Positions 21,152 to 41,038 of a stretch of 64,000 bases of DNA are shown in pieces. The notes below the pieces were generated by a model that saw nothing but the letters and a program-made list of their open reading frames with translations, searched no databases and had not been told where the DNA came from. Both the position numbers and the translations under genes were made by a program. The first letter of the stretch is position 1. Each line of letters begins with the position of its first letter. The DNA is taken from assembly GCA_010015805.1 (NCBI GenBank), contig ML978131.1, positions 124,001-188,000 on the forward strand, written 5' to 3'. This stretch comes from Rhizodiscina lignyota (lineage: Eukaryota).

Positions 21152-22699
21152 CTATTCCGGGATGGTATGATCAAGAGCCTCAACACCAGCTTTCCACCGA
21201 TACTTTGCCGCAGTATGCGAAGGGAGCGGTCCAGTCTGTCCCTTGGTGAGGTACAGGTTCTCGCGATATGTCCCTCCCGGAATTGCATAATCCTTCCAGA
21301 AGAGTCCTCGTCTACGTAGCTCCGGAATCAGGAGCTCTGCAACATCAACGAAAGAGCCTGGTTTGATCGCGTAGGCCTGCAAAGAGTCAGCATACAAACA
21401 TGAAAAGGAGACCCGTCAGTCAAATACAATGTTGAATCCGTCGACATCGGCTTCCTCGACCCATCGCTCGAACTCATCAGCAACCTGCTCGGGAGTGCCC
21501 ACCACCGTCGCACCGAGCCCTCCAATGGTAATGTGCTTGGCGACGGTATGCTTCGTCCATTTCGGTACAGACGGCGAAGCTTTAGACCACGCTTCAACAG
21601 CCGATCGAATGGCATTGCTCTCTACGTGCCGAAGTTCCTCGTCGTCTCCGTATGTTGAAAGGTCAATACCTGTCCAGCCGCCAAACAAGGCCAATGCACC
21701 TTCTATGGATCCGTACCGTTGATACTGATTAAACTTCTTCAACGCTTCTTCCTCTCTTCGACCGATTACGGGGCAGATTAGCGCCATGAACTTAATATCC
21801 GACGGATTGCGGCCGAACTGGTCCCTAGCCATTTGGCGAATCTCGGCAATATTCTTCGCGACAACGGAAGGACTATGGCCGGCAACGAATATACCTTCTG
21901 CATGCTGGGCGGCGAAGGTCTTGCCCGCCTTCGAAGTGCCTGCCTGTAAAAGAAGAGGAGTTCTTTGCGGTGATGGCTGACAGATATGAGGCCCTGGGAC
22001 GGTGTAGTGCTTTCCGACATGATTGATTTCGCGAACTCGTGATGGCTCTGTGTATATGCCGCGTTTCCTGTCGAGTACTACTGCATCATCCCGCCATGAT
22101 GATTCAAACAGCTTATACATCACTTTCATATACTCTTCCGCCACAGCATAGCGGTCGTCGTGAGCGGGTTGCTCTGTCGCTCCGAGGTTGCGTGCGGCAG
22201 AGTCGAGATAACCAGTAACAATATTCCACCCTATGCGGCCCTTCGTGAGATGATCTACGGTGGATAATCGTCGCGCGAGATGGTATGGCTGCTCATACGT
22301 AGTCGCCACTGTTACGCCGAAGCCGATGCTCTTCGTCGCTGCTGCCATTGCGGGAACAACTGCCTAATTGACATTTCTCACTGAGCTTTAATTCTACCCT
22401 CGGTCAATGCTCGCACTCACCAACGGTTCGTTCACAGGCCATTGAGCTCCAGAAATGATCGCAGGCTCCAGATTGCGTGGACCACGATATACATCGTAGC
22501 CTCCAAGCACATCTGCGATGAAAATTCCATGTATTTTGGCCTTTTCGCACAATTTCGCAAGCTCGACCCAGTGCTCTATGTCATTGAATTCCGAGGAGTG
22601 ATCGTCTGGATGCTGCCACAAGCCCGGCGATTGATGGCCGGAACATGATTCAACAAAGGCATTGAGAATGAGCTGCTTCTTGTGGGTGCCGTTCGACAT
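21152..22699 (-). CDS. Luciferase-like FMNH2-dependent monooxygenase, DszA/NtaA/SnaA family (paralog 1); 2 introns
   Basis: LILNAFVE.CSGHQSPGLW.HP, GIFIADVLGGYDVY, MAAATKSIGFGVT, RRLSTVDHLTKGRIGWNIVTGY, PSPQRTPLLLQAGTS, LLIPELRRRGLFW.DY..PGGTYRENLY. Confidence 0.92.
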
Positions 22700-26312: not shown

Positions 26313-27836
26313 TTAGACCTGCTCTCCATTTTCACCGTTTTCACCGTTTTCACCGTTTTCTCCACTTTCTCCATTTTCTCCATCTCGTTTTCGCTTCGAC
26401 GACTCCCTGGCGTATGCGGGCTCAATCTCCCCAGCTTTCCAGAAATACTGCGCTCCGGGGTGGGTGTCCGACAGCCGATTCATTCCCTTGATACCCAGAT
26501 AGTTTTCTCTCAGTGTCCCTCCCGGGACAGCATAATCATCCCAGAACAAGCCTCTCCGTCTCAACTCTGGAAGCAGTAACCTGATAATGTCACGGAACGT
26601 CTCCGGGATTGATGCGTAGCTCAAGTTGAATCCGTCGACGCCAGAAACCTCAGCCCACTCTTCAAGAAGGTCTGCCACGGTCGTCGGACTGCCTATCAAC
26701 TTGGCGCCGTTTCCTCCAAGGACCAGCCAATCCGCAATCGTCTTCTTGTTCCACGTCAGGCCGTCCGGCGATATTGACGCCCAGTGATTCACCATGCTCC
26801 GCACTGCTGGTGGCGCTTTGTCGCTGAACCTGAAGTCTTCGTCATCGGAATACGTGCTCAGGTCGTATCCAGACCATCCGCCGAATAACGCAAGGGCGCC
26901 TTCTCGATCTCCGTACGAGGCCAATTCGTCATACTTCTTTTGTGCAGCTTCGTCGGTTTCAGCCACAACGACTAATAATCCAGTTACGATCTTGATACTA
27001 TCCGGGTCTCTTCCAGCCTCTGCTGCTTGCTTCCGTATGCTGTCGACAGAGGGGCGCACAAGCTCCGCAGTGTGTGCGTTGAGAAAGATCGCTTCGGCGT
27101 GGGTTGCGGCAAATGCGCGGCCTGCCGATGATGTTCCTGCCTGAAAGAGGAAAGGAGTGCGCTGTCTCGAAGGCTCGCAGAGATGCGGTCCCGGAACTTT
27201 GAAGTACTTTCCCTCGTGATTGATTTGTCTCACGCCTTCTGGATCCGCATAGGCCCCTCGTTTGTTCCCGGGCCGAAGTACTGCATCATCTCTCCACGAG
27301 CCTTCCCAGAGCTTGTAGGCCACTTGCATGTACTCGTGCGCCATACGGTAGCGCTCATCGTGCTCGATTTGCGTGTTCAGCGAGAAGTTCCTTGCTGCGG
27401 AATCGAGATATGACGTGACGATATTCCAGGCAACTCTCCCATTGCTAAGGTGGTCCACAGTTGAGAATCTTCTCGCAAGCGCATAAGGAGACTCGTATGT
27501 AGTTGAGGCGGTAACACCGAAGCCAATGCTTTCCGTAGCGGCTGCCATTGCCGGGATTGTGTATAGAGGATCGTTAATCGGGAATTGTATGCCGGCAGGT
27601 ATTGTCGGCGTGAGATTGGCAGGGCCCTTATAGACATCATAGCCGCCGAGGACGTCCGCGAAGAAGATTGCATGGAATTTCGCTTCCTCCAGCTCTTTTG
27701 CGATTGAGATCCAATGGTTGATGTCATTGTACTTGCGGCCTTCGTCTGCAGGATATTTGAACAGTCCAGGGTTCAGATGACCAGGTGCCTGCATGGCGAA
27801 GGCATTGATGATGAATTGCTTTTTAGGCTTTGCCAT
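26313..27836 (-). CDS. Luciferase-like FMNH2-dependent monooxygenase, DszA/NtaA/SnaA family (paralog 2), intronless
   Basis: Same family motifs as paralog 1: FFADVLGGYDVY, RRFSTVDHLSNGRVAWNIVTSY, EPSRQRTPFLFQAGTS, LLPELRRRGLFWDDY. Confidence 0.92.
   Translation of the reverse strand: MAKPKKQFIINAFAMQAPGHLNPGLFKYPADEGRKYNDINHWISIAKELEEAKFHAIFFADVLGGYDVYKGPANLTPTIPAGIQFPINDPLYTIPAMAAATESIGFGVTASTTYESPYALARRFSTVDHLSNGRVAWNIVTSYLDSAARNFSLNTQIEHDERYRMAHEYMQVAYKLWEGSWRDDAVLRPGNKRGAYADPEGVRQINHEGKYFKVPGPHLCEPSRQRTPFLFQAGTSSAGRAFAATHAEAIFLNAHTAELVRPSVDSIRKQAAEAGRDPDSIKIVTGLLVVVAETDEAAQKKYDELASYGDREGALALFGGWSGYDLSTYSDDEDFRFSDKAPPAVRSMVNHWASISPDGLTWNKKTIADWLVLGGNGAKLIGSPTTVADLLEEWAEVSGVDGFNLSYASIPETFRDIIRLLLPELRRRGLFWDDYAVPGGTLRENYLGIKGMNRLSDTHPGAQYFWKAGEIEPAYARESSKRKRDGENGESGENGENGENGENGEQV
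26322..26383 (-). repeat. 9-bp tandem repeat encoding (GEN)n at the C-terminus of DszA paralog 2
   Basis: TTTTCACCG/TTTTCTCCA units on the + strand; protein DGENGESGENGENGENGENGEQV*. Confidence 0.85.
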
Positions 27837-28163
27837 CACGAAGTCGATTGGACCAATGAGAGGTGCAATTGAAAGGTGGATATGTCTAGATAAAATCTAG
27901 AAAGGAAGTTGGAAAGGGCAGGTCGGTGTGAAATGGGATTGCGTGTTGAGTACGCAACGAAGTATCTTAAGAGAGGTGTCTTTGTAAGAGAATTAATTGA
28001 GCAAGAGAAAAATATGAAGAGCGAGAAAATATACAAGGTACTATGCTTCATGTGATGTAGCGTAACACCTGCAGACCACTTGACATATTTAGGTATGCCC
28101 GCGGTGCTGTGTTGGAGGTTTCGGCCGACCTCGGGAGGTTCACCACTCACCATCGCGCTCGTC

Positions 28164-28174
28164 GATGGCGCAAT
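28164..28174. promoter_or_regulatory. CYS-3/MetR-like bZIP site upstream of DszA paralog 2
   Basis: GATGGCGCAAT resembles the ATGRYRYCAT-type palindrome of the sulfur regulator; related sites at 20807, 22848 and 23010. Confidence 0.4.
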
Positions 28175-28375
28175 AGTGGATGCCAGGTACGGAATAAAGA
28201 TCCGCGACAACTATAAATCACTAATAGGATATGTGGATTCACTCTTGGTACTACGCCTTCTCAACAAATAACAGCGATATTTTGCAGTAAGCGGCACTGT
28301 AAGTTCAGAAGCCCATGTCAAGGTGAACATGAAGAGGGGTGTCTTTAAGCCTCCAGTTATTAGTTACTATATTAG

Positions 28376-29476
28376 TTAATAGCATGCTTTAGTAATCCAC
28401 TGCAACATCGTTACATCCTTCTCATCTCTGCGCCCCTCGACGAAAGCCCAATCCTCCAAGACCTTGAAGCAATGATGCATATGCTGAGAGTGGACGTCAA
28501 TTGTGCATACATGTTCCCCGGACTCTTTAGCATTGAAATATCTTCGCATCGCTCTAACACAATGAGCTCGGTGGAACAGCATGTCAACCGGTGCAAAGGC
28601 TGTCTTCGACTCCAGCCAACCAGGGCTAAAGTGGAGGTTTCCGGCCACCACGCTATTCACTTCCGGATATCGGTTTTGAACCCATTCTTGATATCGCTGC
28701 TCTTCCTCTGTAACCAGAGCAGAGGGCACAAACGACTGGTCATCCAGCCGGACGATCCAACTCTCTGAATTGCCCTCTAAGTTCTCAACAAACCAATCCG
28801 TGACATTCTCTGTTGTCAATTTCGCATAGTTCTGCGGCCCCACGCTTCCAATCGGCTGACCATGATTACAGCGCTCGCAGGACAATAGTATTCGACTGTA
28901 CCAAGCCAAGAATAGCAGGCCTAAGCCGACCAACGATGCCACTGCAGCGCACGTAACGGGGGATGCCATGAGATATTTCAAAGATTTCCGTCCACGAATG
29001 CGCTCTATTGGATTCCGTGCGTGGAGATTGTCGTTTTCCTCGTCTTCGGTACTTTCACCATCATATTCTTCTCCCTTTTCGAAGCTCACCTCCGCCAGTG
29101 GACTTGGTTTCGACTTTGCATCGACTGTGCTTATCCTCAGATGATAGAATTGTTCGCGGTAAGGGGTCGCTTGGTCATCTATCGTATCTGAATATACTAT
29201 CGAGAGTGTTCGAGGACTGAAACGAGTTGCTTCCGAGAGGAATCGCCGGGATTGGAATAACGCGCCATCAAAAGAAGTTGATGGTATCTTGTGTGTAGGA
29301 GTCTGCCAGAGAACGTGGAGAGATTTATCCGCGGTTTCATCGACAGCAAAGGCTATCTGACATGCTCCGTAGGTCGAACGACACTTTTTAAGAGCCGCTT
29401 GAAGTTCTAATCGCTGACGTGTTGACGTATCAGGATACAAAATGAAAACTGACAAAGAGATATCAGAGCAATTCAT
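28376..29476 (-). CDS. DUF3328/UstYa-like HxxHC oxidase #1 with a long N-terminal extension
   Basis: One TM helix (AAVASLVGLGLLFLAWY) and two motifs, FHRAHC and QHMHHC; C-terminal Cys. Confidence 0.75.
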   Translation of the reverse strand: MNCSDISLSVFILYPDTSTRQRLELQAALKKCRSTYGACQIAFAVDETADKSLHVLWQTPTHKIPSTSFDGALFQSRRFLSEATRFSPRTLSIVYSDTIDDQATPYREQFYHLRISTVDAKSKPSPLAEVSFEKGEEYDGESTEDEENDNLHARNPIERIRGRKSLKYLMASPVTCAAVASLVGLGLLFLAWYSRILLSCERCNHGQPIGSVGPQNYAKLTTENVTDWFVENLEGNSESWIVRLDDQSFVPSALVTEEEQRYQEWVQNRYPEVNSVVAGNLHFSPGWLESKTAFAPVDMLFHRAHCVRAMRRYFNAKESGEHVCTIDVHSQHMHHCFKVLEDWAFVEGRRDEKDVTMLQWITKACY

Positions 29477-29934
29477 TGCGAAGTGGAAAATTTAGCTTTG
29501 TGTGTGAGTTGTGAGGGATAAACTCGAATAGCCAGAGCTAAGAGTCAAGACGCAGTCAACCAGCAGTCAATGTGGGAGTGATTTTCAAGAAATCAACAGT
29601 GCCGATGGCTGGGACGGTTCCTTGTATGGCCTCAGTACGGAGCACCCTCGCTGATACCCTTGTCAAGCTGACGCTCAAAACTCCCCTGTAAACAGGCTGC
29701 GTACGTTTTACCTTTGAGAGGCGCTCCACCCGGATCTGTAAATACCCCAGCATTCTCACGTAACTTATTTTTGCTATCGGCGCTCCTTGACGTTTGTTCA
29801 GTATTTCCTGTTTTCAAGCCCCTAAATGCTCCCTTCCAGACTTCCAAGCAGGGGCTATTGAATTATACACTTTGTTCGATTCACACAGCTCAGTGCGCAA
29901 TTCATATTTCTAAATTAGACGTTCATCGACGGGT

Positions 29935-31063
29935 ATGACCACGATGTGGATCGGCTGGAGAAAGTCCTCGGATGCTACGCTTTTGTACTCTTCGTTGCCG
30001 ACTGGAGAAGGCGACGTTAGCGAGAAAGCCAAAACTCTCTCCGAAGACGACTCGAACAATGGGAATGGAGCACATAGCCGCGACTACGTACGAGTAACCG
30101 ACCGACGGGCCCTCTTGCCTTGGCTGCTTTGCTGCGTATTGCTTGCTCTATTGGCTTGGGAGACACTGAAGGAGAAGAGATGTGAGACTCCTGCCTGGCG
30201 CGGAACGGACTTTGGTAAGTTTAGGAAGCGAATACCATGCCGATCAGCACAATGCTAAAAGGTTCCTCAGTGCCTGCCCGGAACGCCATCAGAACGAAAG
30301 AGATCAAGTTCAAAAGCGGCCTCAAGTTCATCGACAACGAAACAATGATAAGAACTTTCGACCCTCATGATCCTGTTTATGTCGGCACACCGAACGAAGA
30401 AATCGATCGCAATTGGGCTAATATTGCCCTCCGTAAGCATTAATCGAAACATCGAGCAAGCCTTCAATTCGGCTAACCGAAACATAGCGCAAGAGTTTTG
30501 GATCACAAGAGAAGAAGCTGCAGGATTACCGTATTCCGACCTCTACCTGATTGAAGAGTATGGCCTTTACCAAATAGAGTGAGCTTTACCCGATTGCGAT
30601 ATAGGGTAGCCTCCAACTGTTAACATCCTGCAGAATCGAATCGTTTCACTCTCTGCATTGTTTGGTAGGTGGATGTCCCCGGCTTCTTGTTCTAGAGCTG
30701 ACCACTGGAGAACTTAATTCGAAAGTATATTTACCGAGATCACTATCCAGGGCTTGTCACTCCAAATTTTGAAGCTCATATTGGTATGCCTTCTGCCGCG
30801 CTGTCTCTGTCGATCCAATGTTCTAACCACAAGCCGTAGAACATTGTATTGAGGCGTTAAGAAGCTTCATCATGTGCACTGGAGATATGACCCCAATACC
30901 AATGCCGTGGTCAGACGAAAAGCAATTAATGGTTCCCGACTTTGAAGTTACGCATACTTGTCGGGACTGGGAAGCTTTGCGGGAATGGGCTGCATCGCGT
31001 GATGCGAACCATAATGGTATAAGACAGGCAAACGCTCGCAGACTCTCTTCGCTACAAACATAG
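29935..31063 (+). CDS. DUF3328/UstYa-like oxidase #2 (canonical type); ~6 exons
   Basis: TM helix, GTDF|, YVGTPNEEIDRNW, SFHSLHCL|NLIRKYIY, HI|EHCIEALRSFIMCTGDMTPIP, PDFEVTHTCRDWEAL. Confidence 0.9.
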
Positions 31064-31244
31064 CCTCACAAAGAAGATAATCATGCAGTGTGGGGAAATC
31101 GCCTTACAGGACTGGATGATTATCGAAGCAAAGCCAAGGTATTCGAGCCAACTCCAAGAGCGTATGGACGTAGAATTGAAATAGCAGTAGTCAGAAATGT
31201 GCAGATAGGAATCTCTTTACGCTACAGCCACTTTCAACATGCAG

Positions 31245-31891
31245 CTAATCAAAATCTATACATGCGTTGAACTTCCTCTCCAATCTGGTGAAATTCCTTG
31301 GGTTGCTCAGCATATCCAGCATGATCTCTGCACAGTGTTCTGTATGCCGATGGCTGTACGCGTCATTATCCAGAATGTCTCCATCTGTGATAGCCCATAG
31401 CTGCCTTTTCCATAGATACATGCAGTGACTGGTATGATAATCAGGTGTTGTGAAGACGACCTTATACTCTCCATGCTCTATTAGCTCCCTTGACACTGCT
31501 TGGGTGAGCTCAGAGTCCTTGAAGAAAGTCCAGTTCCCTTGATTCATGTAATATCTCGACAGCCTCTGTGTCCTTTCAGGGAAACATTGTGGTTGCATCC
31601 ACGCTATTCTGGCCTTAGATGTGTGTCATAACATAACAAATGACTGGGGCTCTCACCTCCCATCATGGGATCGAATAAGCATCCATTGATTTGAGCCTCT
31701 TCTGCAGAAGAGCCACACGTTTGGAGATGCAGCCGACGACCGTTGTGCGTGCCATCAAACAGCTTTGGCCACCAGATAAGGGAGCATACAATTGTGCCCG
31801 AGGCAATACCAAGAAAGAAAAGTGAGAATAATAAAGCCCGAGATTTCAAGCGAGTTTGAGACATGGAAGCGATAAGAATATTCCTGCGCAT
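31245..31891 (-). CDS. DUF3328-like HxxHC oxidase #3 (CGSS.EEA..GC.FD subtype); one intron
   Basis: TM helix, CGSSAEEAQINGCLFDPMMG|AWMQPQC, YHTSHCMYLWKR, RHTEHCAE. Confidence 0.8.
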
Positions 31892-32249
31892 GTAGCAATG
31901 ATGGTTGCCGTCACTCTAGTGGCAGGATCAGGTGTCGTGGTATTACATATACGTTTGTCCGGGTAGTCAATGATGGTCACTATGAAGCTAAAGCGTTATT
32001 CACCACCCTAGATTAGGAGATGGACTATTTGTCAAGATTTGCTTTTACCGATCCCTACCTACTCCGGAACCGTTAATCACCGAGATGAGCTAAGATTTAT
32101 TTATGATTGCGTTTCGTTATCATTGCCTCCAGCTCGTTTCCAGCTAAGACAGATACGAGTCATACATCTGGAATCACAGACATAACTATTGAGCATAAGT
32201 GTGAATTGGTAGTACCTCCCGCTACGCCTAATTGTGCTTATGTCGAGAG

Positions 32250-32256
32250 TATAAAG
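32250..32256 (+). promoter_or_regulatory. TATA box upstream of the small precursor gene
   Basis: TATAAAG lies 159 nt upstream of ATG 32409, which has a good AAAATG context. Confidence 0.45.
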
Positions 32257-32408
32257 ATGTCCACGTCCTCTCTGAGAGAACATACATTAAAATTCGTCCT
32301 TCACTGTCATCACTGCCTCGCCACTTCACAAAGTTGAATCAATCCGTAAGCCCTAATCATCCTCGTAGACACGAGTTGAATTCTGATTACACCTTAGTCC
32401 AGACCAAA

Positions 32409-32579
32409 ATGCGCTTTACAAGCCTCCTCAGTCTTGTCGCGATCGCGATCACCTCGGTGTCCGCTCTGCCGGTGGCAGATGCAGCAAAAGCGATGAAGAT
32501 GCTTCACGTTCGAGATGCCGACGCCACTGCTGCCGCCAAAGCTGAGCCATATCTGATTTGCGTCAATTGTAGCTACTAG
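32409..32579 (+). CDS. 56-aa secreted prepropeptide, candidate RiPP precursor (predicted core YLICVNCSY)
   Basis: Signal peptide MRFTSLLSLVAIAITSVSA|LP, pro-region ending VR, then DA-DA-TA-AA-KA-EP and C-terminal YLICVNCSY*. It sits among five HxxHC oxidases and a tyrosinase. Confidence 0.75.
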   Translation: MRFTSLLSLVAIAITSVSALPVADAAKAMKMLHVRDADATAAAKAEPYLICVNCSY

Positions 32580-33402
32580 CGTATGTTTGATTTCTCCACT
32601 TTCGTCGACCACACTAACACGCTCAAGGCATCTGGAGCATCAAGAAGGGTCTAGCACGTAGACGATCAACTGGCAATCTTCAGAATTTCTGGCGAGGAAG
32701 AGGATACTTCAGCGGACCAGCCATATTACTTCTGTCACTTAGATCACTTAAATTACTCAAATTACTCAACAATTGTTGAATCTTGTCAAAGTTCACTTTT
32801 AATGCGGTGAAGTTAAGCTCAAGCCGGTACGAATTACAGGGTCAGGCATAATAACCGACCGCCGACGCGCTTAACCTGTTCAAGCCATTGTGCAAGCTAT
32901 CCGTATCCTGATCCTGATCGCGTGTCCACCACTGTCTGTAACTGATAAAATCGTTGCAACACAAGTACGATAACGCGCAATAAGATTTGGCGTGTCTTTT
33001 TACCGGTTAATAGGGAACTCTCTCACCATCTCGAGCGACATTACAGCTGCACGATCGCAAGCTAATTTCTTAATCTTTATTTTTCGCTCTACAACCGGAG
33101 ATGTAAACCAACAACAAGACTTTAATCCGGGGAAACGCTACGATAATGGAAAAGTACGCCACGCACCTTAGCACCTATCTCCTAACTAGGCTAGCGTTCT
33201 GTTTTCCCGCATCACCCTTCAACGTGTTTCTTCAGTGTGTCGGCATTACCTACGATAGAGTACGGCCGCCACGGCCGCCACGGCCGCTCCAGCCGCTTCT
33301 TTATGAAGTAGGCGAGACACATTTTGCTAGAGCATGCAGTGAGCACGAAGTAGTGAATATCGTGGTTTGATTAAAGGCGGAAACGTCTGAAGGAGAGAAC
33401 GC

Positions 33403-33485
33403 TCTGGGCACACCCCTGACAGTTGACTCCCAAGGCCTGACTCCGCTGAGTGCCCTGCTCCAATCATATTGTCAGGGGTTCCCAG
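33403..33485. repeat. Imperfect inverted repeat (hairpin) just left of the MITE
   Basis: TCTGGG..ACCCCTGACA is complementary to TGTCAGGGGT.CCCAGA. Confidence 0.5.
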
Positions 33486-33510
33486 AAGGTCCTAGTGTAC
33501 GAAGGATATA

Positions 33511-33670
33511 CAGAGGGTAACCGCGTCGGTTCGCAAGCTTGCTACCTTGAAGCCACACGCTATGCCAAAACACATTAATTTGGGCCGTATTTTTAAGCCG
33601 AAACGCTCAGGACAGCTCAAGTAGATGGCTTTCCACTAGCAGGCATGCGAACCGACGCGGTTACCTTCTG
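33511..33670. mobile_element. 160-bp MITE, Tc1/mariner-type
   Basis: TIRs TA|CAGAGGGTAACCGCGTCGGTTCGCAAGCTTGCTA ... TAGCAGGCATGCGAACCGACGCGGTTACCTTCTG|TA. The 20-bp core is a perfect inverted match (33516-33535 vs 33646-33665), with TA on both sides and no coding capacity. Confidence 0.75.
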
Positions 33671-33932
33671 TAGTATCTTACCTATCCAGGCAGTAAACGC
33701 ACAGGCGGATTTCCTCTCTTGCATCAATCCACGAGCTCGCTGTGTGCTTCCGACACAGACTTTGCCTTGTATCTATAAGCGCTAAAACTGAAGGACAGGA
33801 TTTTCACGGTCCATATTCGAGCGTGGCTGTAGACGCGGACCATCAAACGAACTCTAAGTTTATCACTTCCTAGCCGAAATTGTAATATCACAGACGTACA
33901 CCAGTCTGAAAGCCCGTAGCTCTGATTATTAA

Positions 33933-34331
33933 TCACGGCGCTGCGTCGGTGCTTGTTTCACCGCCATCCTCTACTGCTCCCTTAGCAAGCAAGCCACTTT
34001 CTTCAGAGTCATCCTGTGCATCCACTCTTTTATCAACAGATCTTCGGGAAAGAAGGAAGAACGCCCCCGAAGTTACCAAGGATATCAGGAGGACCGTAAG
34101 AGCCGCAAGGTTTTGAAGTGTGCTCAGCCCAATCGTTCGGCTCGAGCTGTTGTTTCCGAAGTTTAGGGCGTTCGTCGTGGCCAGTGGTGGAGGCGTCCCG
34201 GGAAGCGTCAGATTCTCCTTATCGTAACTTGCTGTTGCATAGGGAGTTGGGTAGGTGTCGTGTGCGTGCATGTAGTACCATGTGCCGCCAATCTCGAGCA
34301 CGCTGAGGATATCGCTTGCCGCTGTTGACAT
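33933..34331 (-). CDS. Hypothetical 132-aa single-TM protein inside the RiPP cluster
   Basis: ATG-initiated ORF with one hydrophobic helix (LAALTVLLISLVTSGAFFLL) and an acidic tail; divergent from oxidase #4. Confidence 0.45.
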   Translation of the reverse strand: MSTAASDILSVLEIGGTWYYMHAHDTYPTPYATASYDKENLTLPGTPPPLATTNALNFGNNSSSRTIGLSTLQNLAALTVLLISLVTSGAFFLLSRRSVDKRVDAQDDSEESGLLAKGAVEDGGETSTDAAP

Positions 34332-34883
34332 TGCGGTTTGTTGCCTCTTAACCTAGGGCCTAGGCCGAAGAGTATCGGAATTAATTATGAAAGACTCGGA
34401 CCAAAAATTCTAAAGACGAAGACTGAAAGACGGTTGAAATGAAAGAGCGGACAGAGTCGGTATTGAATCTCACTTCCCAGCAAGTATCGAATCATTTCGA
34501 TAAGCTAAGTGATTATTTTTGTCCTTCCACAGCTCAGAATAGGGGAGCATTTCCTCACCCTGATTTCGTATAGCCGAAATGACTGCACGCTGACAGATAC
34601 GTATGCATTAAGATCTGCCCTTGACACGGTCCACTGTCACAAGGGGGCAATTAACAGTTGACAACCTGAAAGGATTGACGTTAGTCCCGTTGATCATCAT
34701 GTGCAGTCCATGAAGCTCAGAGACACTTCGGATTGAGTAATTTGGCGACACCGTACGACTCAGCAGCTTCTTTCGTACCCTTTCCGGTAGTAACATTCTC
34801 AGTCTTAATTCTCGACCACTTGAAACTTTCTACGACACGGCCGGTTCTACAACTATAAAACACCCATCATCAGATTTGCATCC

Positions 34884-35492
34884 ATGGCCTTCTACCACCG
34901 ACTGCATCACGAGGACCAAAACTCAAGCGAAGAAGAATTGGCTCGGACATTCGTACCGCGCTCGACGAAGCCTGTTTTGACCTCAATCATTGGGATCGTT
35001 GCGGGAATCGGCACAATCATTCTGATTACCTCTGCTCTGTTCTACAGACCATGGCATCACCAAGAGATCAAGAGCTGCGGCAGCAGCCCTGAGGAAGCTG
35101 AGAGGAATGGTTGCAAGTTCGACATCATGATGAGCGCGTGGTTACCCTCTCAGTGTTCCAATCGTACCCTGTCCGAAGAATATTTAAACCAATACAATTG
35201 GCAGTGGTACGCGGATCCGCAACTCGTCGAGGTATTTTCTCTCGAGCAAATGCGAAAAGGGCAGCATCGCTTTGCTTGGACTACTCCGGATTTCCACGTC
35301 ACGCACTGTGCTTACATGCTGGAGCGAATGGTTCGGTCGATGAAAATGGACGGTGAAAAGTGGGCGGACAGCGATTCAGTCGATATCAAGCATGTGCATC
35401 ATTGCGCAGACAGCCTGTTGCAGGAACCGTATAATAAAGATGGAAATTTCACACGGGTCATGGTTGGATATCTCTCATGTGTCAAATTATAG
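34884..35492 (+). CDS. DUF3328-like HxxHC oxidase #4 (CGSS.EEA..GC.FD subtype), intronless
   Basis: TM helix, CGSSPEEAERNGCKFDIMMSAWLPSQC, FHVTHCAYMLER, KHVHHCAD; TATAAAA ~30 nt upstream. Confidence 0.85.
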   Translation: MAFYHRLHHEDQNSSEEELARTFVPRSTKPVLTSIIGIVAGIGTIILITSALFYRPWHHQEIKSCGSSPEEAERNGCKFDIMMSAWLPSQCSNRTLSEEYLNQYNWQWYADPQLVEVFSLEQMRKGQHRFAWTTPDFHVTHCAYMLERMVRSMKMDGEKWADSDSVDIKHVHHCADSLLQEPYNKDGNFTRVMVGYLSCVKL

Positions 35493-35567
35493 ATTGTGGA
35501 TTTGACAGTGGACAGGTCGTATAGTCCTAACGAGCCGAGAGGTGCTATGCGACTTCCTTACAATGCA

Positions 35568-36694
35568 TTAGTTTTCATGATTGGAGTCTGATGGTTTGCC
35601 ATGTTGATCGCCTTTGAGATGGTCCTCCATCCAAATCTTCTCCTGATCAGATATCTCAAATCCTTGCCTTTGTATACCCTTTGTCCAGTTCGGGCTGTCA
35701 CCAGTAGTATTGCGCTTTGAGGCCCAGTCCCACACATGGTCAAAATTCTTGCATTCAAACGTCTGCATGTGGGAGAGGCTATAAGCATAGTGCTCCTCTG
35801 ACCATTCAAACGTTTGCGGTGTTATATCACCACTGCACATTAGGCCCACGCGAATATGCTCCAGGCAATGATCTTTCAGCAATCAGTAGAGGCAATCGAA
35901 AGCGGTAGGGCGCAAGTCAAACCTAAGTGAAATTCCCACCAGCTCAAAGGACCGTCATTTTGCCAGTTAAGATCAACAGGGCGCCAGATCTGCTCCCTCA
36001 GCATCGACTGCAAGTGGTCAATTAATCTCTTTCGGGTGCAAAGAGAAAATGAAACGTACCAGACAGTGTAATTCATGAAAGACGTTTAACTCTGTCATAT
36101 ATTTCCCTGGATTGCGAATATCTTTCGCACTCGAATGAACCATTCGAGCGTGTTCCTCGGGCGAGATGCTCACCATGCCAACTTCAATTGCTCTATCAAC
36201 ACTCATTGTTCTGGCAGATAGGTACTTGGGTACATACCACTGAGTAGTTTATCCCAAGCGCCATCGGATATGTTTGAAGGGCGTCCCATGAAATCTGATG
36301 GGGAATTCACCCCGTCATACTCCAATCTCCCAGTTGTGAGGTGGAGATCATCGTATATATCTGAAAACATCAGGATCGAAACATATATAGAAGCAATGGG
36401 GTTGATACTCGGCCAAGCAGGTCCATCAGCCTTGTCGTCACTCTCCCATTTGATGCCAATGCCCATCCATACTGCCCCAAAGATAGAGAGCTCGAAAGAT
36501 ATTAGGAGGAAATGAAGGATCCATGGCAAATACTGCAAGACGCGCCTCTGCTTGCCATTCCATCGAACGATATTTTTGGTGAACTTCTCTTGCTGAGCAT
36601 GATCTTCGAAGTCGGGGTCTGATAAAAGCGTAACGGATGTCTCTTCCTGTTCTATCCCATGGGTGTCGTTGGGTACTGGGTGATACTCCGCCAT
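35568..36694 (-). CDS. DUF3328/UstYa-like oxidase #5 (canonical type); ~5 exons
   Basis: TM helix, FMGRPSNISDGAWDKL, LNVFHELHCL|SMLREQIW, FHL|DHCLEHIRVGLMCSGDITP, FECKNFDHVWDWA. Confidence 0.9.
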
Positions 36695-37284
36695 ATCGCA
36701 ACGCTTGAAAATTGTACAGGTGAGTCGTACGGAGTGACTGTGGTACGGTTGTAATGAGGAGCCTCGCTCGAGGGTGTCTTACAGCCCTAAATGTCAGCGG
36801 CAAACTCCGACTTGGATCGGCAACATGATTCTCGAAAAGAGAAACCATATTAATCAGAGTTAAGGAGTAGTAGCTTATGGGACATGGGTGGTTCGTAGCA
36901 TATCTCGCGTCATCCCTGAAGCCAGCCGGAAATGGTAGGGCTACTTTAGTGCTGACATGATTGAAATAAAGCTCTGGGCTAATACAGGGATTCGTTAACG
37001 GACTCTACGGGCGGCTTCCTTAACCTAGTGCCCGTGAATCATTCAGCTTGAATCCAGCTCGACAGTTGTCAGTCCGGCTGGCCAGGCTTCCCCACTCACG
37101 TGTCGCATTAGAGAACTCGCATCGTCCTGGATATCGCTCTGACTCTCGCGGTCCGGATGGTTCCACGCTCATTGTATATTCCAATACCAGATGAGGTACA
37201 AGATGAAGATGAAGGAGCAGAGATCGAAACTGAAACGAATGAGTATGGCTCTTCTTGGAAGATGTTGTAACCTGTTCTGTACTG

Positions 37285-38482
37285 ATGATGTACAGCGCCA
37301 CTTCCTCAAGTCTACCAACCTCGAATCCTTCACCGTCTTTTAACTGGACTTTGCTGTCGTGGCTTGGTTTACTCGCTCTTATAGTGGTGGCTATTTTTCT
37401 ACTCAAAAGTCACACCGGCAAGTCTGTCTCGCACAGTGGGTCCAGTGAACTGCTTCGCCAATGCAGCAATGCCACTCTTCGAAGAGAATGGAGAAGCCTT
37501 TCGACAGCGGAAAAGCTAGACTACGTTGAAGCCGTCCAGTGCTTATACAAGAAGCCCTCTCCAATGAGGCCAAATACCACAATATACGAAGATTTCGCTT
37601 GGACGCATAATCGCCACGCCAACGAAAGTAAGAATCAATGAAGGAGTGTGGAGTAACATGTTGAGCTAACGCCACACTGAAGCCCATCAAACGGCAGCCT
37701 TGTTACCGTGGCACAGATACTATATTTCGATCTACGAAAAGGCATTACAGCATTACTGCGGGTATAAGGGAACTTTGGTGTAAGGCCCCCCCCTTGCTGC
37801 AGAGAAACATTTTACTGACGGCTTCGAAGATACTGGAACTGGGCACTCGACTGGGAAGAGCCCGCCAATTCTCCAATCTTCGATCCCGACACGGGCTTGG
37901 GAGGGGATGGCATTGCTGGCGGTGCTGTGACACCTTCGTTCGGACATTGCCTGCATGACGGGCCCTTTGCACATTTCAGAGCACTATACGTGAACTCAAG
38001 ATATGCTCCTCATTGTCTCGCTCGAGGATTTGGGGATGCAAATCAACAGGGCCGATTCTCGGGATCCCCGTACAGACCGCAAGCCATGAAAGAGATACTG
38101 GCAGCTGAAACTTATGAAGCATTCTTGGAGCGGCTGCTTTCGGCACATCGCGCGGTTCACAACGGGGTCGGCGGAGATTTCCAAAGTAACACGGCGCCAT
38201 ACGGTAGATTCCGACAGTTTATCACCCTTTGGTCGTTGCTGATTCGCTGTTATAACAGATCCGTTGTTCTTCCTGCATCATACCCAAGTCGACCGTCTAT
38301 GGTGGATATGGCAACATAAGAAGGCGGATTCGAGGTTGACAGATTACAGCGGAAATGTTGATATATCCAGTAATGAGTCGGCCTCTCTTGACGATCCACT
38401 GCGCATGGATCCCATGGCGGCCACAGTAATGGTTTCTACTGTAATGAGCACAGAGACAGATCTTCTTTGTTACTCGTATTAA
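37285..38482 (+). CDS. Tyrosinase (di-copper centre) with N-terminal TM anchor, UstQ/PhomQ-like; 4 exons
   Basis: LRREWRSLSTAEKLDYVEAVQCL; CuA region H..H..LLPWHRYYI; YWNW; CuB region HRAVHNGVGG..APY|DPLFFLHHTQVDRLW; ends LCYSY. Confidence 0.9.
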
Positions 38483-38516
38483 TAAGCTGGAGTAATACTC
38501 CCAATGGTACGATCGA

Positions 38517-38733
38517 GGAATTCCAACACAACACCTAGATGTTGGGAACGATAGAGAACCAAAATTCTATTAAACTGTATCAGACAAACCTGTCAGAGGA
38601 AGTCGCTTGGTGTTCGTTGAGCTATTGCTGGGGCGGAGACCAAGTATTCAAACTTACCAAGGCTCGAATGGATGACTACTTCCGGCAGATAGCCCTCCAC
38701 GACCTTCCTGCTACGCTGCGTGATGCTGTTCGT
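38517..38733 (+). pseudogene. HET-domain (heterokaryon incompatibility) gene fragment
   Basis: IPTQHLDVG (resembling LPTRLLDV) is in one frame and IKLYQT..WCSLSYCWGGDQ..LPATLRDAV in another, implying a frameshift. No downstream WIDxLCI motif and no intact start. Confidence 0.65.
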
Positions 38734-39335
38734 ATGAAGGAACCCTCGAATACTCGAGCATAGTGCTTTCAAGAACGTATGCTTTCGCGACGCGTGCTCG
38801 ATTACGGAACCACACAACTGCGACTTATTTGCCGAAGCAAAAGCTCTTCGCCATGAAGGTCAACACGACACGTTCTCCACTGATCCAGGCTTGGACGATA
38901 GGGGAGGCTGTGCCAAAGCGAAAAAGCTTTCAGAGAATTATGGCAAGAAGTCGCTACTCTCACATCAAAACTTCAAAAGTAAAGTTGTTGCAGGGAAATC
39001 CGCTTCAGGTTTAGGTGGTCGTCCCATTACGGTTTAGCTCATTTTTCTGAGAGCTGTTTTAGCATGTGTTAAAATTTGTCACAATTGTGACGTTGCGCGC
39101 ATGTCAAGCAAAGCCTTCGGTCCGCCAAGAGCCCCCCTAATGGCTGCTGACCGTTACTGCACAGGCCGATCAGCATAACTCTCCGGCTGGGCGACCTCGC
39201 AAGGTTTACCAGGAACAGCCGTCGCTCCACTACCTACAGTTTCTCCCTTCGCTCATAACCTCTTCTTCTTCTCATGCATCCCCGTTAATCATTGAACTTG
39301 TTAACGTCGGACCGCGTGCAGCACTTGGCAACATC

Positions 39336-41038
39336 ATGGCAGACCCTCCTATGATAAAAAGAACACGAGCACGCGTGCCAAGAGTGCGGACTGGATGCAT
39401 CACCTGCAAGTGCGTTTCTTACATTTGTGTCAAGCCTTGAGGAAACTGACAGGGACCCAAAGGATACGACATCTCAAGTGCGACGAAGAGAAGCCATCCT
39501 GTCGACAATGCATCTCCGCTGGCTTCAAGTGTGATGGCTACAAGCCTCCCCAACCAACCAAGCCTCGAGAGACCGCAGCGACGAGCACTTCGGTCGATGT
39601 TGTAGCACCGCTGGCAGCCCAGAAGAGACTGTTGCCAAATCCTGGTTGCTACGAGCTCAAGCTGTACCAGCGCTACGTAGCTCCGAAGCTCTCCAGTTAC
39701 TCTGACGCTGGTTTTTGGAACGTTCTTATTCCGCAAATGTCACAGACAGAGCCTGCAATACGACACGTGGTGGTTGCGATCTGTGCTGTGCACAGGGATA
39801 TTGAGTCTATTCGCAGCTACTCTCGACTGAGCGTCCTCCGGCCTAACCCTCTGGCCATGAAAGAGGCCAGCCAGGCCATGCAAAGCCTCTCGCAGAGGAT
39901 CAACTCGGATCCCAGTTCAAGCCTTGTTCCCCTAGTCGCCTGTCTGCTCTTTACGTGCCTAGAGCTTCTCTGTGGCAACTTCGAAACTGCAATCGTCCAC
40001 GTGGCGAATGGCTTTAGGATCCTCAACGGTCTCAGTTCTGCTGAGCTTGCCGGAAGGTCACATCAACAGATCGCAGAAACGAACACGATTGAGAAGGAGG
40101 TCGCACCGGTATTCCAGCACCTGAGCGTGCTTTGCCTGCTGTTCGGGCAGACGCATGCATTCGATACTGCCGGCCATGTTGCAACAACAGAATTCGCTAC
40201 GTTCACATCGTTGGGAAACGCCCGACTTAATCTGTTCGAGCTGTTCAGCCAAGTCTTCCGCTTCATCAAAGTTGCCAGTAATAAGGCTGATAAGGGGAGC
40301 ATTGACGTGACAGATCTCATTGAAAAGGTTAAATTTGAGCGGCGGCTGCAGCACTGGTACAGCTGTATGGAGCAGTATGTAGAAACTGCAGCCAAATCAG
40401 GCCGCCATGTCGACGAGAATGCGGTGAATATCTTGCGCATGCACCACCGTACCATACTTGTTTGGCTCTCAGTGTGCCTCTCCGTAGACGGAGCTGACCT
40501 CGATCTTCACACATCCAACTTTGAAGAAATTGTCCGCCTCTGCGAGAGCATCGCGCGTAATTCACCCGGTTCAACAACCACCTCGCCGCCCCAAACACCA
40601 GGACATAATAAATTCTCATTTGGCATGGGTATGATACCATCACTCTACTGGGTTGCAAGGGAGTGTCGCGATTCCACAATCCGTAAAAGGGCGTTGGACC
40701 TGCTCCTAAAAGCGCCACTCCGCGAAAGTCTTTGGGATGCGCACGTTTTTTCCAAGATTGCCGAGCGCGCCAAGGCTATAGAGGAGTCTCAAAAGCACAG
40801 TCAGAAAACGCTCTCTCCGGAAGACTGCTTGCGAGGAGGTCTCTCATTGACGTCAGATCATAAAATTCGTCCTGAGCTACCTGTACACAACTTCAAACGT
40901 GTCCGGACTTACAGGATCCACAACACTCTCATTTCGAACAACTGGTCTGCCGATCAAAGATCAAGAGTCACGTTTCGTGCGAAGCCATGGGGACCACTCG
41001 GCGCATGGCACATATGGGATGATTTTGTCTATCTATGA
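39336..41038 (+). CDS. Zn(II)2Cys6 transcription factor; one intron ~39410-39461
   Basis: RVRTGCITCK|IRHLKCDEEKPSCRQCISAGFKCDGY, plus fungal TF middle region FWNVLIPQMSQTEPAIRH..ACLLFTCLE. Confidence 0.88.

Follow-up and report, generated by a model that had tools for sequence, protein, structure and literature searches.

Among fungal peptides that are made by ribosomes and modified after translation (RiPP), the closest described relatives of the locus reported here, a 10.1-kb gene cluster at positions 28376-38482 of a 64-kb window of Rhizodiscina lignyota DNA, are the dikaritins ustiloxin (ust) and phomopsin (phom). In the core peptides of both, an N-terminal Tyr is reported to be linked to the Ile two residues on, within a motif written YXIX (PMC7329392, PMC9233826). 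Three ustiloxin enzymes, UstQ, UstYa, and UstYb, have been described as essential and sufficient for formation of the first cyclic intermediate (PMC6514808). UstYa belongs to the DUF3328 family, another member of which, CctR, is reported to be a disulfide-linked, O2-dependent dimer with an HxxHC(x)nHxxHC motif that binds two coppers and is essential (PMC12435403). In lichens, clusters named Clan R1 are described as encoding two UstY homologues with conserved HxxHC pairs and a tyrosinase, with no repeated precursor found, and their authors consider as possibilities that the precursor is encoded elsewhere than in the cluster or that it has just one core peptide (PMC12048977).

The R. lignyota cluster resembles the ustiloxin and phomopsin clusters in several respects. 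It encodes a UstQ/PhomQ-like tyrosinase (by Pfam family, not direct alignment), paired UstYa-type oxidases, and, in a small open reading frame (ORF), a candidate precursor with a signal-peptide-like N terminus and a putative core opening with Tyr-x-Ile-x, and there is a zinc-finger regulator nearby. On the other hand, unlike the ustiloxin and phomopsin precursors, this candidate has one C-terminal core with neither repeats nor Kex2 (KR) sites, the core is nine residues long with two Cys, and of the five HxxHC proteins, three do not belong to Pfam UstYa. The phomopsin cluster likewise has five UstYa homologues. Because a Kex2-processed repeat precursor, a feature often used to define dikaritins, is missing, the locus is best filed as a dikaritin variant, not as a plain member. 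Our proposal is that it is a RiPP cluster of the dikaritin type, restricted to its lineage, whose precursor is non-canonical in having a single core, a reading that we consider evenly balanced between right and wrong.

Gene models were read from the window, i.e. the whole 64-kb stretch of DNA that was analyzed, in whose coordinates all positions are given. Seven protein-coding models and the small ORF make up the cluster. They are listed here together with the neighboring regulator, with sizes in amino acids (aa) and the position of the transmembrane (TM) segment.

28376-29476, minus strand: g1, single exon, 366 aa, TM 169-189, motifs HRAHC302 and HMHHC332
29935-31063, plus strand: g2, six exons, 289 aa, TM 59-79, motifs HSLHC186 and HIEHC214
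29935-30214, 30262-30432, 30488-30578, 30634-30664, 30711-30783, and 30840-31063, plus strand: exons of g2, with GT..AG introns of 46-56 nt
31245-31891, minus strand: g3, exons 31657-31891 and 31245-31603, 197 aa, TM 19-39, motifs HTSHC135 and HTEHC165
32409-32579, plus strand: small ORF (candidate precursor), 56 aa, signal-peptide-like, ending in YLICVNCSY
33933-34331, minus strand: g5, 132 aa, predicted single-pass membrane protein, TM 75-95
34884-35492, plus strand: g6, single exon, 202 aa, TM 31-51, motifs HVTHC138 and HVHHC170
35568-36694, minus strand: g7, four exons, 325 aa, TM 59-79, motifs HELHC191 and HLDHC223
36238-36694, 36060-36190, 35923-36007, and 35568-35872, minus strand: exons of g7, with introns of 47-52 nt
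37285-38482, plus strand: g8, tyrosinase, four exons, 345 aa, hydrophobic anchor 20-40
37285-37627, 37683-37779, 37830-38203, and 38259-38482, plus strand: exons of g8
39336-41038, plus strand: Zn2Cys6 transcription factor, exons 39336-39409 and 39463-41038

All seven models (g1-g3 and g5-g8) and the small ORF are open, their introns are 46-56 nt long with the usual ends, and the codon scores of the cluster exons are in the coding range. Two acceptors, one in g2 and one in g7, are an unusual GAG, and were chosen because they restore conserved sequence downstream of the first motif. A six-frame scan of the window found 13 contiguous HxxHC motifs, 10 of which lie within the cluster and eight of these in the five models, while introns interrupt another two motifs, which stand outside the contiguous count. 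This concentration is more than chance. These models bear out the initial annotation of this DNA, which had described five TM proteins with two HxxHC motifs each, a TM tyrosinase, and one tiny secreted ORF within ∼10 kb. Its statement that the window has no non-ribosomal peptide synthetase (NRPS) or polyketide synthase (PKS) also stands, as domains of neither kind were found in 34 long ORFs of the window or in 15 cluster pieces, and open frames in the window reach 927 aa at most. It had mentioned neither g5 nor the Zn2Cys6 regulator, nor that only g2 and g7 score above the UstYa threshold. More generally, the window has the features of a fungal chromosome, with short GT..AG introns, the Zn2Cys6 regulator, and heterokaryon-incompatibility (HET), forkhead, and IQGAP-type genes. 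In positions 28000-39500, neither an Rfam nor a tRNA scan returned a match. Among sequencing runs, the one listed for 28500-38482 is a DNA run, probably that behind the assembly, and none of RNA is listed.

In g1, g2, g3, g6, and g7 alike, a single strongly hydrophobic segment precedes two HxxHC motifs spaced 28-32 residues apart. All five share the arrangement reported for CctR, ApnU, and AprY, an HxxHC(x)nHxxHC motif behind one TM helix, in a C-terminal domain predicted to be lumenal (PMC12435403). In the reported enzymes, the N terminus is cytosolic and the lumenal domain is helical. Flanking charges predict cytosolic N termini for g1, g2, and g7, and the charge difference is small for g3 and g6. 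By sequence comparison, the five proteins fall into three lineages: a UstYa pair (g2/g7), an unannotated family (g3/g6), and an orphan (g1). Against PF11807 (UstYa, DUF3328), for which the gathering cutoff is 25 bits, the last exon of g2 scores 48.1 bits (E 1.8e-12) and the exon pieces of g7 score 33.5 and 32.0 bits. These two proteins are 26% identical to each other in blastp (E 9e-21). Under the cutoff are g6, with 23.0 bits (E 8.1e-5), and the C-terminal half of g1, with 13.5 bits (E 0.064). In the main scan g1 matched no Pfam family at E<=0.1, and g3, scanned as separate exons, had no Pfam match at E<=0.1, PF11807 included. The initial annotation had proposed five DUF3328-like oxidases and a HMMER check with PF11807 and PF00264. 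The motif architecture holds for all five and the check recovers g2, g7, and g8 (see below for g8), but g1, g3, and g6 fail the PF11807 cutoff and represent two other lineages.

The family of g3 and g6 is large. An exhaustive HMMER search with g6 returned 1687 representatives (50% identity) at E<=1e-3, 711 of them at E<=1e-10, with a closest non-self relative that is 40% identical, and a word-index search gave only the protein's own fragment and one 34% relative. Across an alignment of 66 family sequences, C65, G66, A72, C77, W86, C91, C142, H170, C174, and C199 do not vary, and conservation is at least 90% at H138, H141, and H173. Thus, g6 carries four family-invariant Cys besides those in its HxxHC motifs. 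The family signature can be written as a 'CGxSxxEA..GC' HxxHC type. In g3 and g6, unlike in CctR and other characterized DUF3328 proteins, there is an additional N-terminal module rich in Cys (CGxSxxEA..GC..W..C), and the UstYa C-terminal tail is missing. Other unannotated members are ∼200-270 aa long, with one TM helix, the invariant Cys, and the HxxHC pairs. PF11807 touches four of the 66 aligned members at E<=0.01, and of the 19 listed cluster members, the eight with names go without exception by 'hypothetical' or 'uncharacterized' (e.g. in Fonsecaea). That g3 belongs to this family is shown by three comparisons. It aligns with the g6-family profile over 141 columns in hhalign (probability 99.9%, E 8.6e-37), it is 34.5% identical to g6 in blastp (E 4e-34), and it falls in the same 7-leaf clade as g6, with a support of 0.80, in a tree of 148 sequences from which P0001, P0002, and proteins shorter than 150 or longer than 330 aa were omitted. 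A model of g6 computed from the alignment with AlphaFold2 (AF2) has a predicted local distance difference test (pLDDT) score of 85.5 and places the two motifs on predicted helices 135-154 and 168-179. It matched no solved structure (best Foldseek E 3.1, best VIA Z 3.7), a result that is uninformative on fold novelty. No description of this family, or of a link between it and UstYa/tyrosinase clusters, was found in the non-subscription literature searched.

The third lineage, g1, has an N terminus of ∼168 aa that is predicted to be cytosolic, followed by a putative lumenal domain bearing both HxxHC motifs. The g6-family profile aligns with g1 with a probability of 59.5%, over a motif core of 45 columns only, and gives 8.2% for g2, 5.9% for g7, and 17.7% for an alignment of g2 and g7, all within the motif region. 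In blastp, g1 is 23% identical to g2 over 239 aa. A protein language-model look-up (Atlas) yielded only leads for g1 (0.88 and 0.83), and its single-sequence structure model, with a pLDDT of 46, is unusable. By analogy with UstYa and CctR, we infer that g1, g3, and g6 may be binuclear-copper oxidases of the same mechanistic type.

The tyrosinase assignment of g8 is based on matches to PF00264, for which the cutoff is 22.6 bits. Exons 2, 3, and 4 match this family in colinear order with 36.2, 30.5, and 29.0 bits, covering profile positions 25-56, 59-192, and 195-213, respectively (25-213 of 214). In the spliced model, the CuA site is represented by H116-x8-H125, with H108/H111 upstream, and the CuB site by H253-x3-H257 followed by H278 and H279. 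There is no C-terminal lid domain, and the hydrophobic anchor at 20-40 is followed by four sequons. As judged by these features, g8 is a membrane-anchored type-3 copper tyrosinase with a complete set of copper histidines. Exon 3 compared with PDB sequences gave nothing at E<=0.01, which is uninformative since this exon lacks both copper-site core motifs. Since g8 and the g2/g7 pair correspond to a tyrosinase and two homologous UstYa proteins, a counterpart of the trio that cyclizes ustiloxin is present here.

The small ORF has a central place in the cluster and is divergent from g3 across 517 bp. Its predicted product consists of a signal peptide (approximately residues 1-19), a 28-aa pro-region rich in Ala, Asp, and Lys, and YLICVNCSY immediately before the stop. 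A crude signal-peptide test was passed by six of the 466 ATG ORFs of at least 30 aa in the window, with the small ORF having the best h-region (2.67). Its codon log-ratio is 0.180 in frame versus -0.013 and -0.010 out of frame, a value reached by 11% of 391 null ORFs and close to the mean of 205 true coding chunks (0.185), and five other ORFs scored between g3 and g5 have codon scores of 0.03 or less. A TATAAAG sequence at about 32250 precedes the ATG by ∼155 bp, and the ATG itself stands in the context CAAAATG. On these features taken together, the small ORF is probably a real secreted-peptide gene. A short ORF upstream of it, at about 32258-32338 (plus strand) and downstream of the TATA box, contains an HCHHC, probably by chance. 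At the level of sequence motif, the C-terminal nonapeptide opens with Y-L-I-C and fits YXIX. A Y-x-I within the last 12 residues occurs in 12 of 400 null ORFs.

Whether the small-ORF transcript might be spliced was considered as well. An intron-like element at 32581-32627 (GTATGT ... CACTAAC ... AAG) starts one base past the stop, and a second candidate, at 32346-32402, lies upstream of the ATG. Both are possible introns of untranslated regions, as judged from their sequence. Strict patterns of this kind occur 21 times in the window, where chance would give ∼10.5, so that the evidence for a spliced transcript is only ∼2:1. As the main model, a longer precursor made by splicing across the stop was rejected. 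Past the intron-like element the reading frame continues in phase for 51 open codons, but it has a codon score of only 0.057, and GTAGCT, the sole donor before the stop, is weak. Also rejected was a second signal-peptide-like precursor ORF at 33645-33785 (46 codons, four Cys), which has a codon score of 0.031 and overlaps an inverted repeat. The 64-kb window contains no ORF with dibasic sites and repeats that could be an alternative precursor, and the cluster contains no coding tandem repeat.

From these genes, motifs, and predicted topologies we infer that the cluster is expressed and that its enzymes act on the small-ORF product, in a pathway whose chemical and proteolytic steps would be as follows. 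The six enzymes (g8, g2, g7, g3, g6, and g1) would be held in secretory-pathway membranes, their catalytic domains facing the lumen. The pre-pro-peptide would enter the endoplasmic reticulum via its signal peptide, with YLICVNCSY as the sole core. By analogy with ustQ/ustYa/ustYb, g8 and g2/g7 would oxidize Y48 and join it to the β-carbon of I50, giving a Tyr-O-Ile macrocycle across Y-L-I. Extra oxidations or cross-links might then be introduced by g1, g3, and g6 at the two Cys and the terminal Tyr, including addition of Cys onto a tyrosinase-made quinone. Finally, an unlinked protease would cut after Pro47, removing the 28-residue pro-region and freeing the core. Family and motif evidence supports the enzyme roles well, whereas the precursor assignment, judged from sequence features, is plausible and could equally well go either way.

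In its fullest form, the proposal would make the small ORF the true precursor of a new dikaritin sub-class. The unrepeated C-terminal core would sit behind a leader-like pro-region of ∼28 residues, and would be released without Kex2, possibly after Pro47. It would be made polycyclic by three kinds of HxxHC oxidase plus a tyrosinase, with a Tyr-O-Ile ether and possible intramolecular Cys-S-aryl bridges between the two Cys and quinones of the two Tyr, and among the binuclear copper enzymes that modify peptides, the g3/g6 family would form a second branch. Taken as a whole, this extended version is unlikely.

Several findings count in favor of a dikaritin-type cluster served by the small ORF. Besides the enzyme trio, the motif architecture of the five HxxHC proteins, and the central position, signal-peptide-like and coding-like character, and Y-x-I opening that mark the small ORF and its nonapeptide, a Zn2Cys6 regulator is adjacent, the 64-kb window has no Kex2-repeat precursor, NRPS, or PKS elsewhere, and the cluster models are open while the nearby HET gene is decayed. 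Others weigh against it. The small ORF has a single core, with no repeats and no KR or RR (Kex2) site. Among 5.8 billion proteins only two word-sharing candidates were found for it, neither scoring at E<=10, and none of 597 pattern matches in metagenome contigs was confirmed. The Y-x-I match was spotted post hoc. No homologue of g1 was found among 1943 word-sharing candidates, and in hhalign g1, g3, and g6 tie to UstYa via the motif core alone. Neither word searches nor a scan of metagenome contigs found an orthologous cluster. No peptidase gene, in the cluster or next to it, was recognized in domain scans of window ORFs. The four divergent promoters do not share any exact 7- or 8-mer, nor do three of them share a 9-mer, exact words being a weak test. 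Moreover, DUF3328 enzymes are reported to act on non-ribosomal products as well, e.g. cyclochlorotine, and ApnU is described as a DUF3328 halogenase (PMC12435403).

Other genes of the ustiloxin and phomopsin pathways (S41 peptidase, methyltransferase, P450, and flavin monooxygenase) were not recognized in the cluster, and the sole hydrolase-type matches in the window are an amidase ∼14 kb off and a HAD-family hydrolase ∼10 kb off. From the comparison with dikaritin pathways made in the initial annotation, the UstQ-like tyrosinase, the bona fide UstYa pair, and the probably real small ORF survive, but Kex2 sites and repeats are absent. The search for homologous clusters that it had suggested, made here in proteins and metagenomes, produced neither an orthologous cluster nor a homologue of the small ORF. 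Two of its claims need correction. It had held that the core matches none of the products that it named, but YLICVNCSY opens with the Y-x-I-x motif reported for ustiloxin and phomopsin (PMC7329392). It had also put the cluster forward as a candidate undescribed one, but repeat-less UstY/tyrosinase clusters with a possible single core have already been discussed (PMC12048977).

The alternative that survives best, and which we regard as a serious if somewhat doubtful possibility, is that the oxidase cluster is real and active but that the small ORF is not its substrate. The precursor would then be encoded elsewhere in the genome, or the product would be a non-ribosomal metabolite, and the ORF would be an unrelated secreted peptide or an unused frame. 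The missing repeat/Kex2 signature, homologues, and shared promoter words all fit this alternative, as do the tailoring of NRPS products such as cyclochlorotine by DUF3328 enzymes (PMC12435403) and the out-of-cluster precursor considered by the authors of the lichen study (PMC12048977). However, no NRPS, PKS, or repeat precursor lies within 64 kb, and the small ORF is central, has the strongest signal-peptide-like N terminus of the window, is uniquely coding-like among the ORFs scored in its gap, and has a core with a Y-x-I start. In addition, the combination of a tyrosinase with a UstYa pair is so far documented, in the accounts cited here, for ribosomal Tyr-containing cores (PMC6514808, PMC7329392).

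Alternatively, the locus might be what remains, silent or in decay, of a dikaritin cluster whose Kex2-repeat precursor and peptidase were lost, and might make no product, which we consider improbable. Consistent with this are the absence of a canonical precursor, of a recognized peptidase or methyltransferase gene, and of close orthologues in our searches, and also, within the cluster or next to it, the decay of a HET gene, 1.35 kb in which no ORF is coding-like, and an inverted repeat of 47 nt. Speaking against decay are seven open models and an open small ORF, ten intact HxxHC motifs, intact tyrosinase copper histidines, and exon codon scores in the coding range.

The remaining alternative concerns g5, which may or may not belong to the cluster. 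It has a codon score of 0.165, no signal peptide, and no Pfam family. With four Lys/Arg on the C-terminal side of the TM segment versus one on the N-terminal side, and three N-glycosylation sequons before this segment, its N terminus, which is Tyr- and His-rich (WYYMHAHDTYPTPYATASY), is predicted to be lumenal, and its C terminus is acidic. We know of no fungal precedent for a g5-like protein, or for an enzyme's own terminus, serving as substrate, which counts against such a role. That g5 or the termini of the enzymes themselves are the substrate, in the manner of plant BURP cyclases, which bear their own cores, is very improbable: g5 does lie in the cluster with six Tyr in its first 36 residues, and the DUF3328 His arrangement has been compared with that of BURP cyclases (PMC12435403), but g5 has no Y-x-I motif and the long N terminus of g1 is predicted to be cytosolic.

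Returning to the proposed single-core dikaritin variant, the nearest published parallel is with the lichen Clan R1 clusters. Unlike the present locus, these add an O-methyltransferase and an FGE-sulfatase, and the published account, with which we compared by description and not by sequence, puts forward no concrete single-core ORF (PMC12048977). The repeat-less single-core idea is thus already in print for lichens, and the novelty here lies in a specific ORF as candidate and in three HxxHC lineages occurring together. No similar cluster with an identified single-core precursor was found in the same literature search. If the proposal is correct, it would have several implications. Genome mining for DUF3328 RiPP relies on Kex2-processed repeat precursors, and antiSMASH is reported to key on ustA-/phomA-like repeats (PMC7099791). 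A single-core precursor without Kex2 sites would mean that this filter misses a class of clusters, and would explain the repeat-less UstY/tyrosinase clusters of lichens. The large unannotated g3/g6 family, with its 1687 representatives and potentially copper-binding HxxHC pair, would gain a first functional context. Because ustiloxins and phomopsins are described as tubulin-binding mycotoxins (PMC9233826), the product of this cluster could be bioactive. We view the cluster as a good genome-mining lead, not as a surprise of high order.

Downstream of g8, the Zn2Cys6 gene at 39336-41038 matches PF00172 with 28.9 bits and PF11951 with 30.4 bits, and its spliced N terminus restores the full six-Cys motif. 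It is a candidate regulator of the cluster, as judged from sequence. Between it and g8, positions 38539-38760 encode a HET-domain fragment (PF06985, E 0.0023, under the cutoff) with stop codons after it, apparently a decayed heterokaryon-incompatibility gene. Within the cluster, the inverted repeat at 33509-33672 has 47-nt arms that are 83% complementary and separated by 70 nt, and lies in the 1.35-kb gap between the small ORF and g5. It could be a hairpin element or resemble a miniature inverted-repeat transposable element. Three cluster products end in Cys-x(0-2)-Tyr: the small ORF (NCSY, 32562-32579), the tyrosinase (LCYSY, 38465-38482), and g1 (KACY, 28376-28390). The C-terminal Cys of g6 (C199), which is invariant in its family, may be compared with these ends. 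For this contig, all that is found of g6 in the public protein collection is a 114-aa fragment (residues 66-179), and the source assembly therefore seems to be without proper eukaryotic gene annotation there. Upstream of the cluster are two luciferase-like, flavin mononucleotide-dependent monooxygenase genes (26313-27836 and 21416-22363, both on the minus strand), with a solute symporter and an amidase, which look like a separate catabolic group. The monooxygenase encoded at 26313-27836 ends in a GENGEN repeat, which originates from a 9-bp tandem array at 26323-26383.

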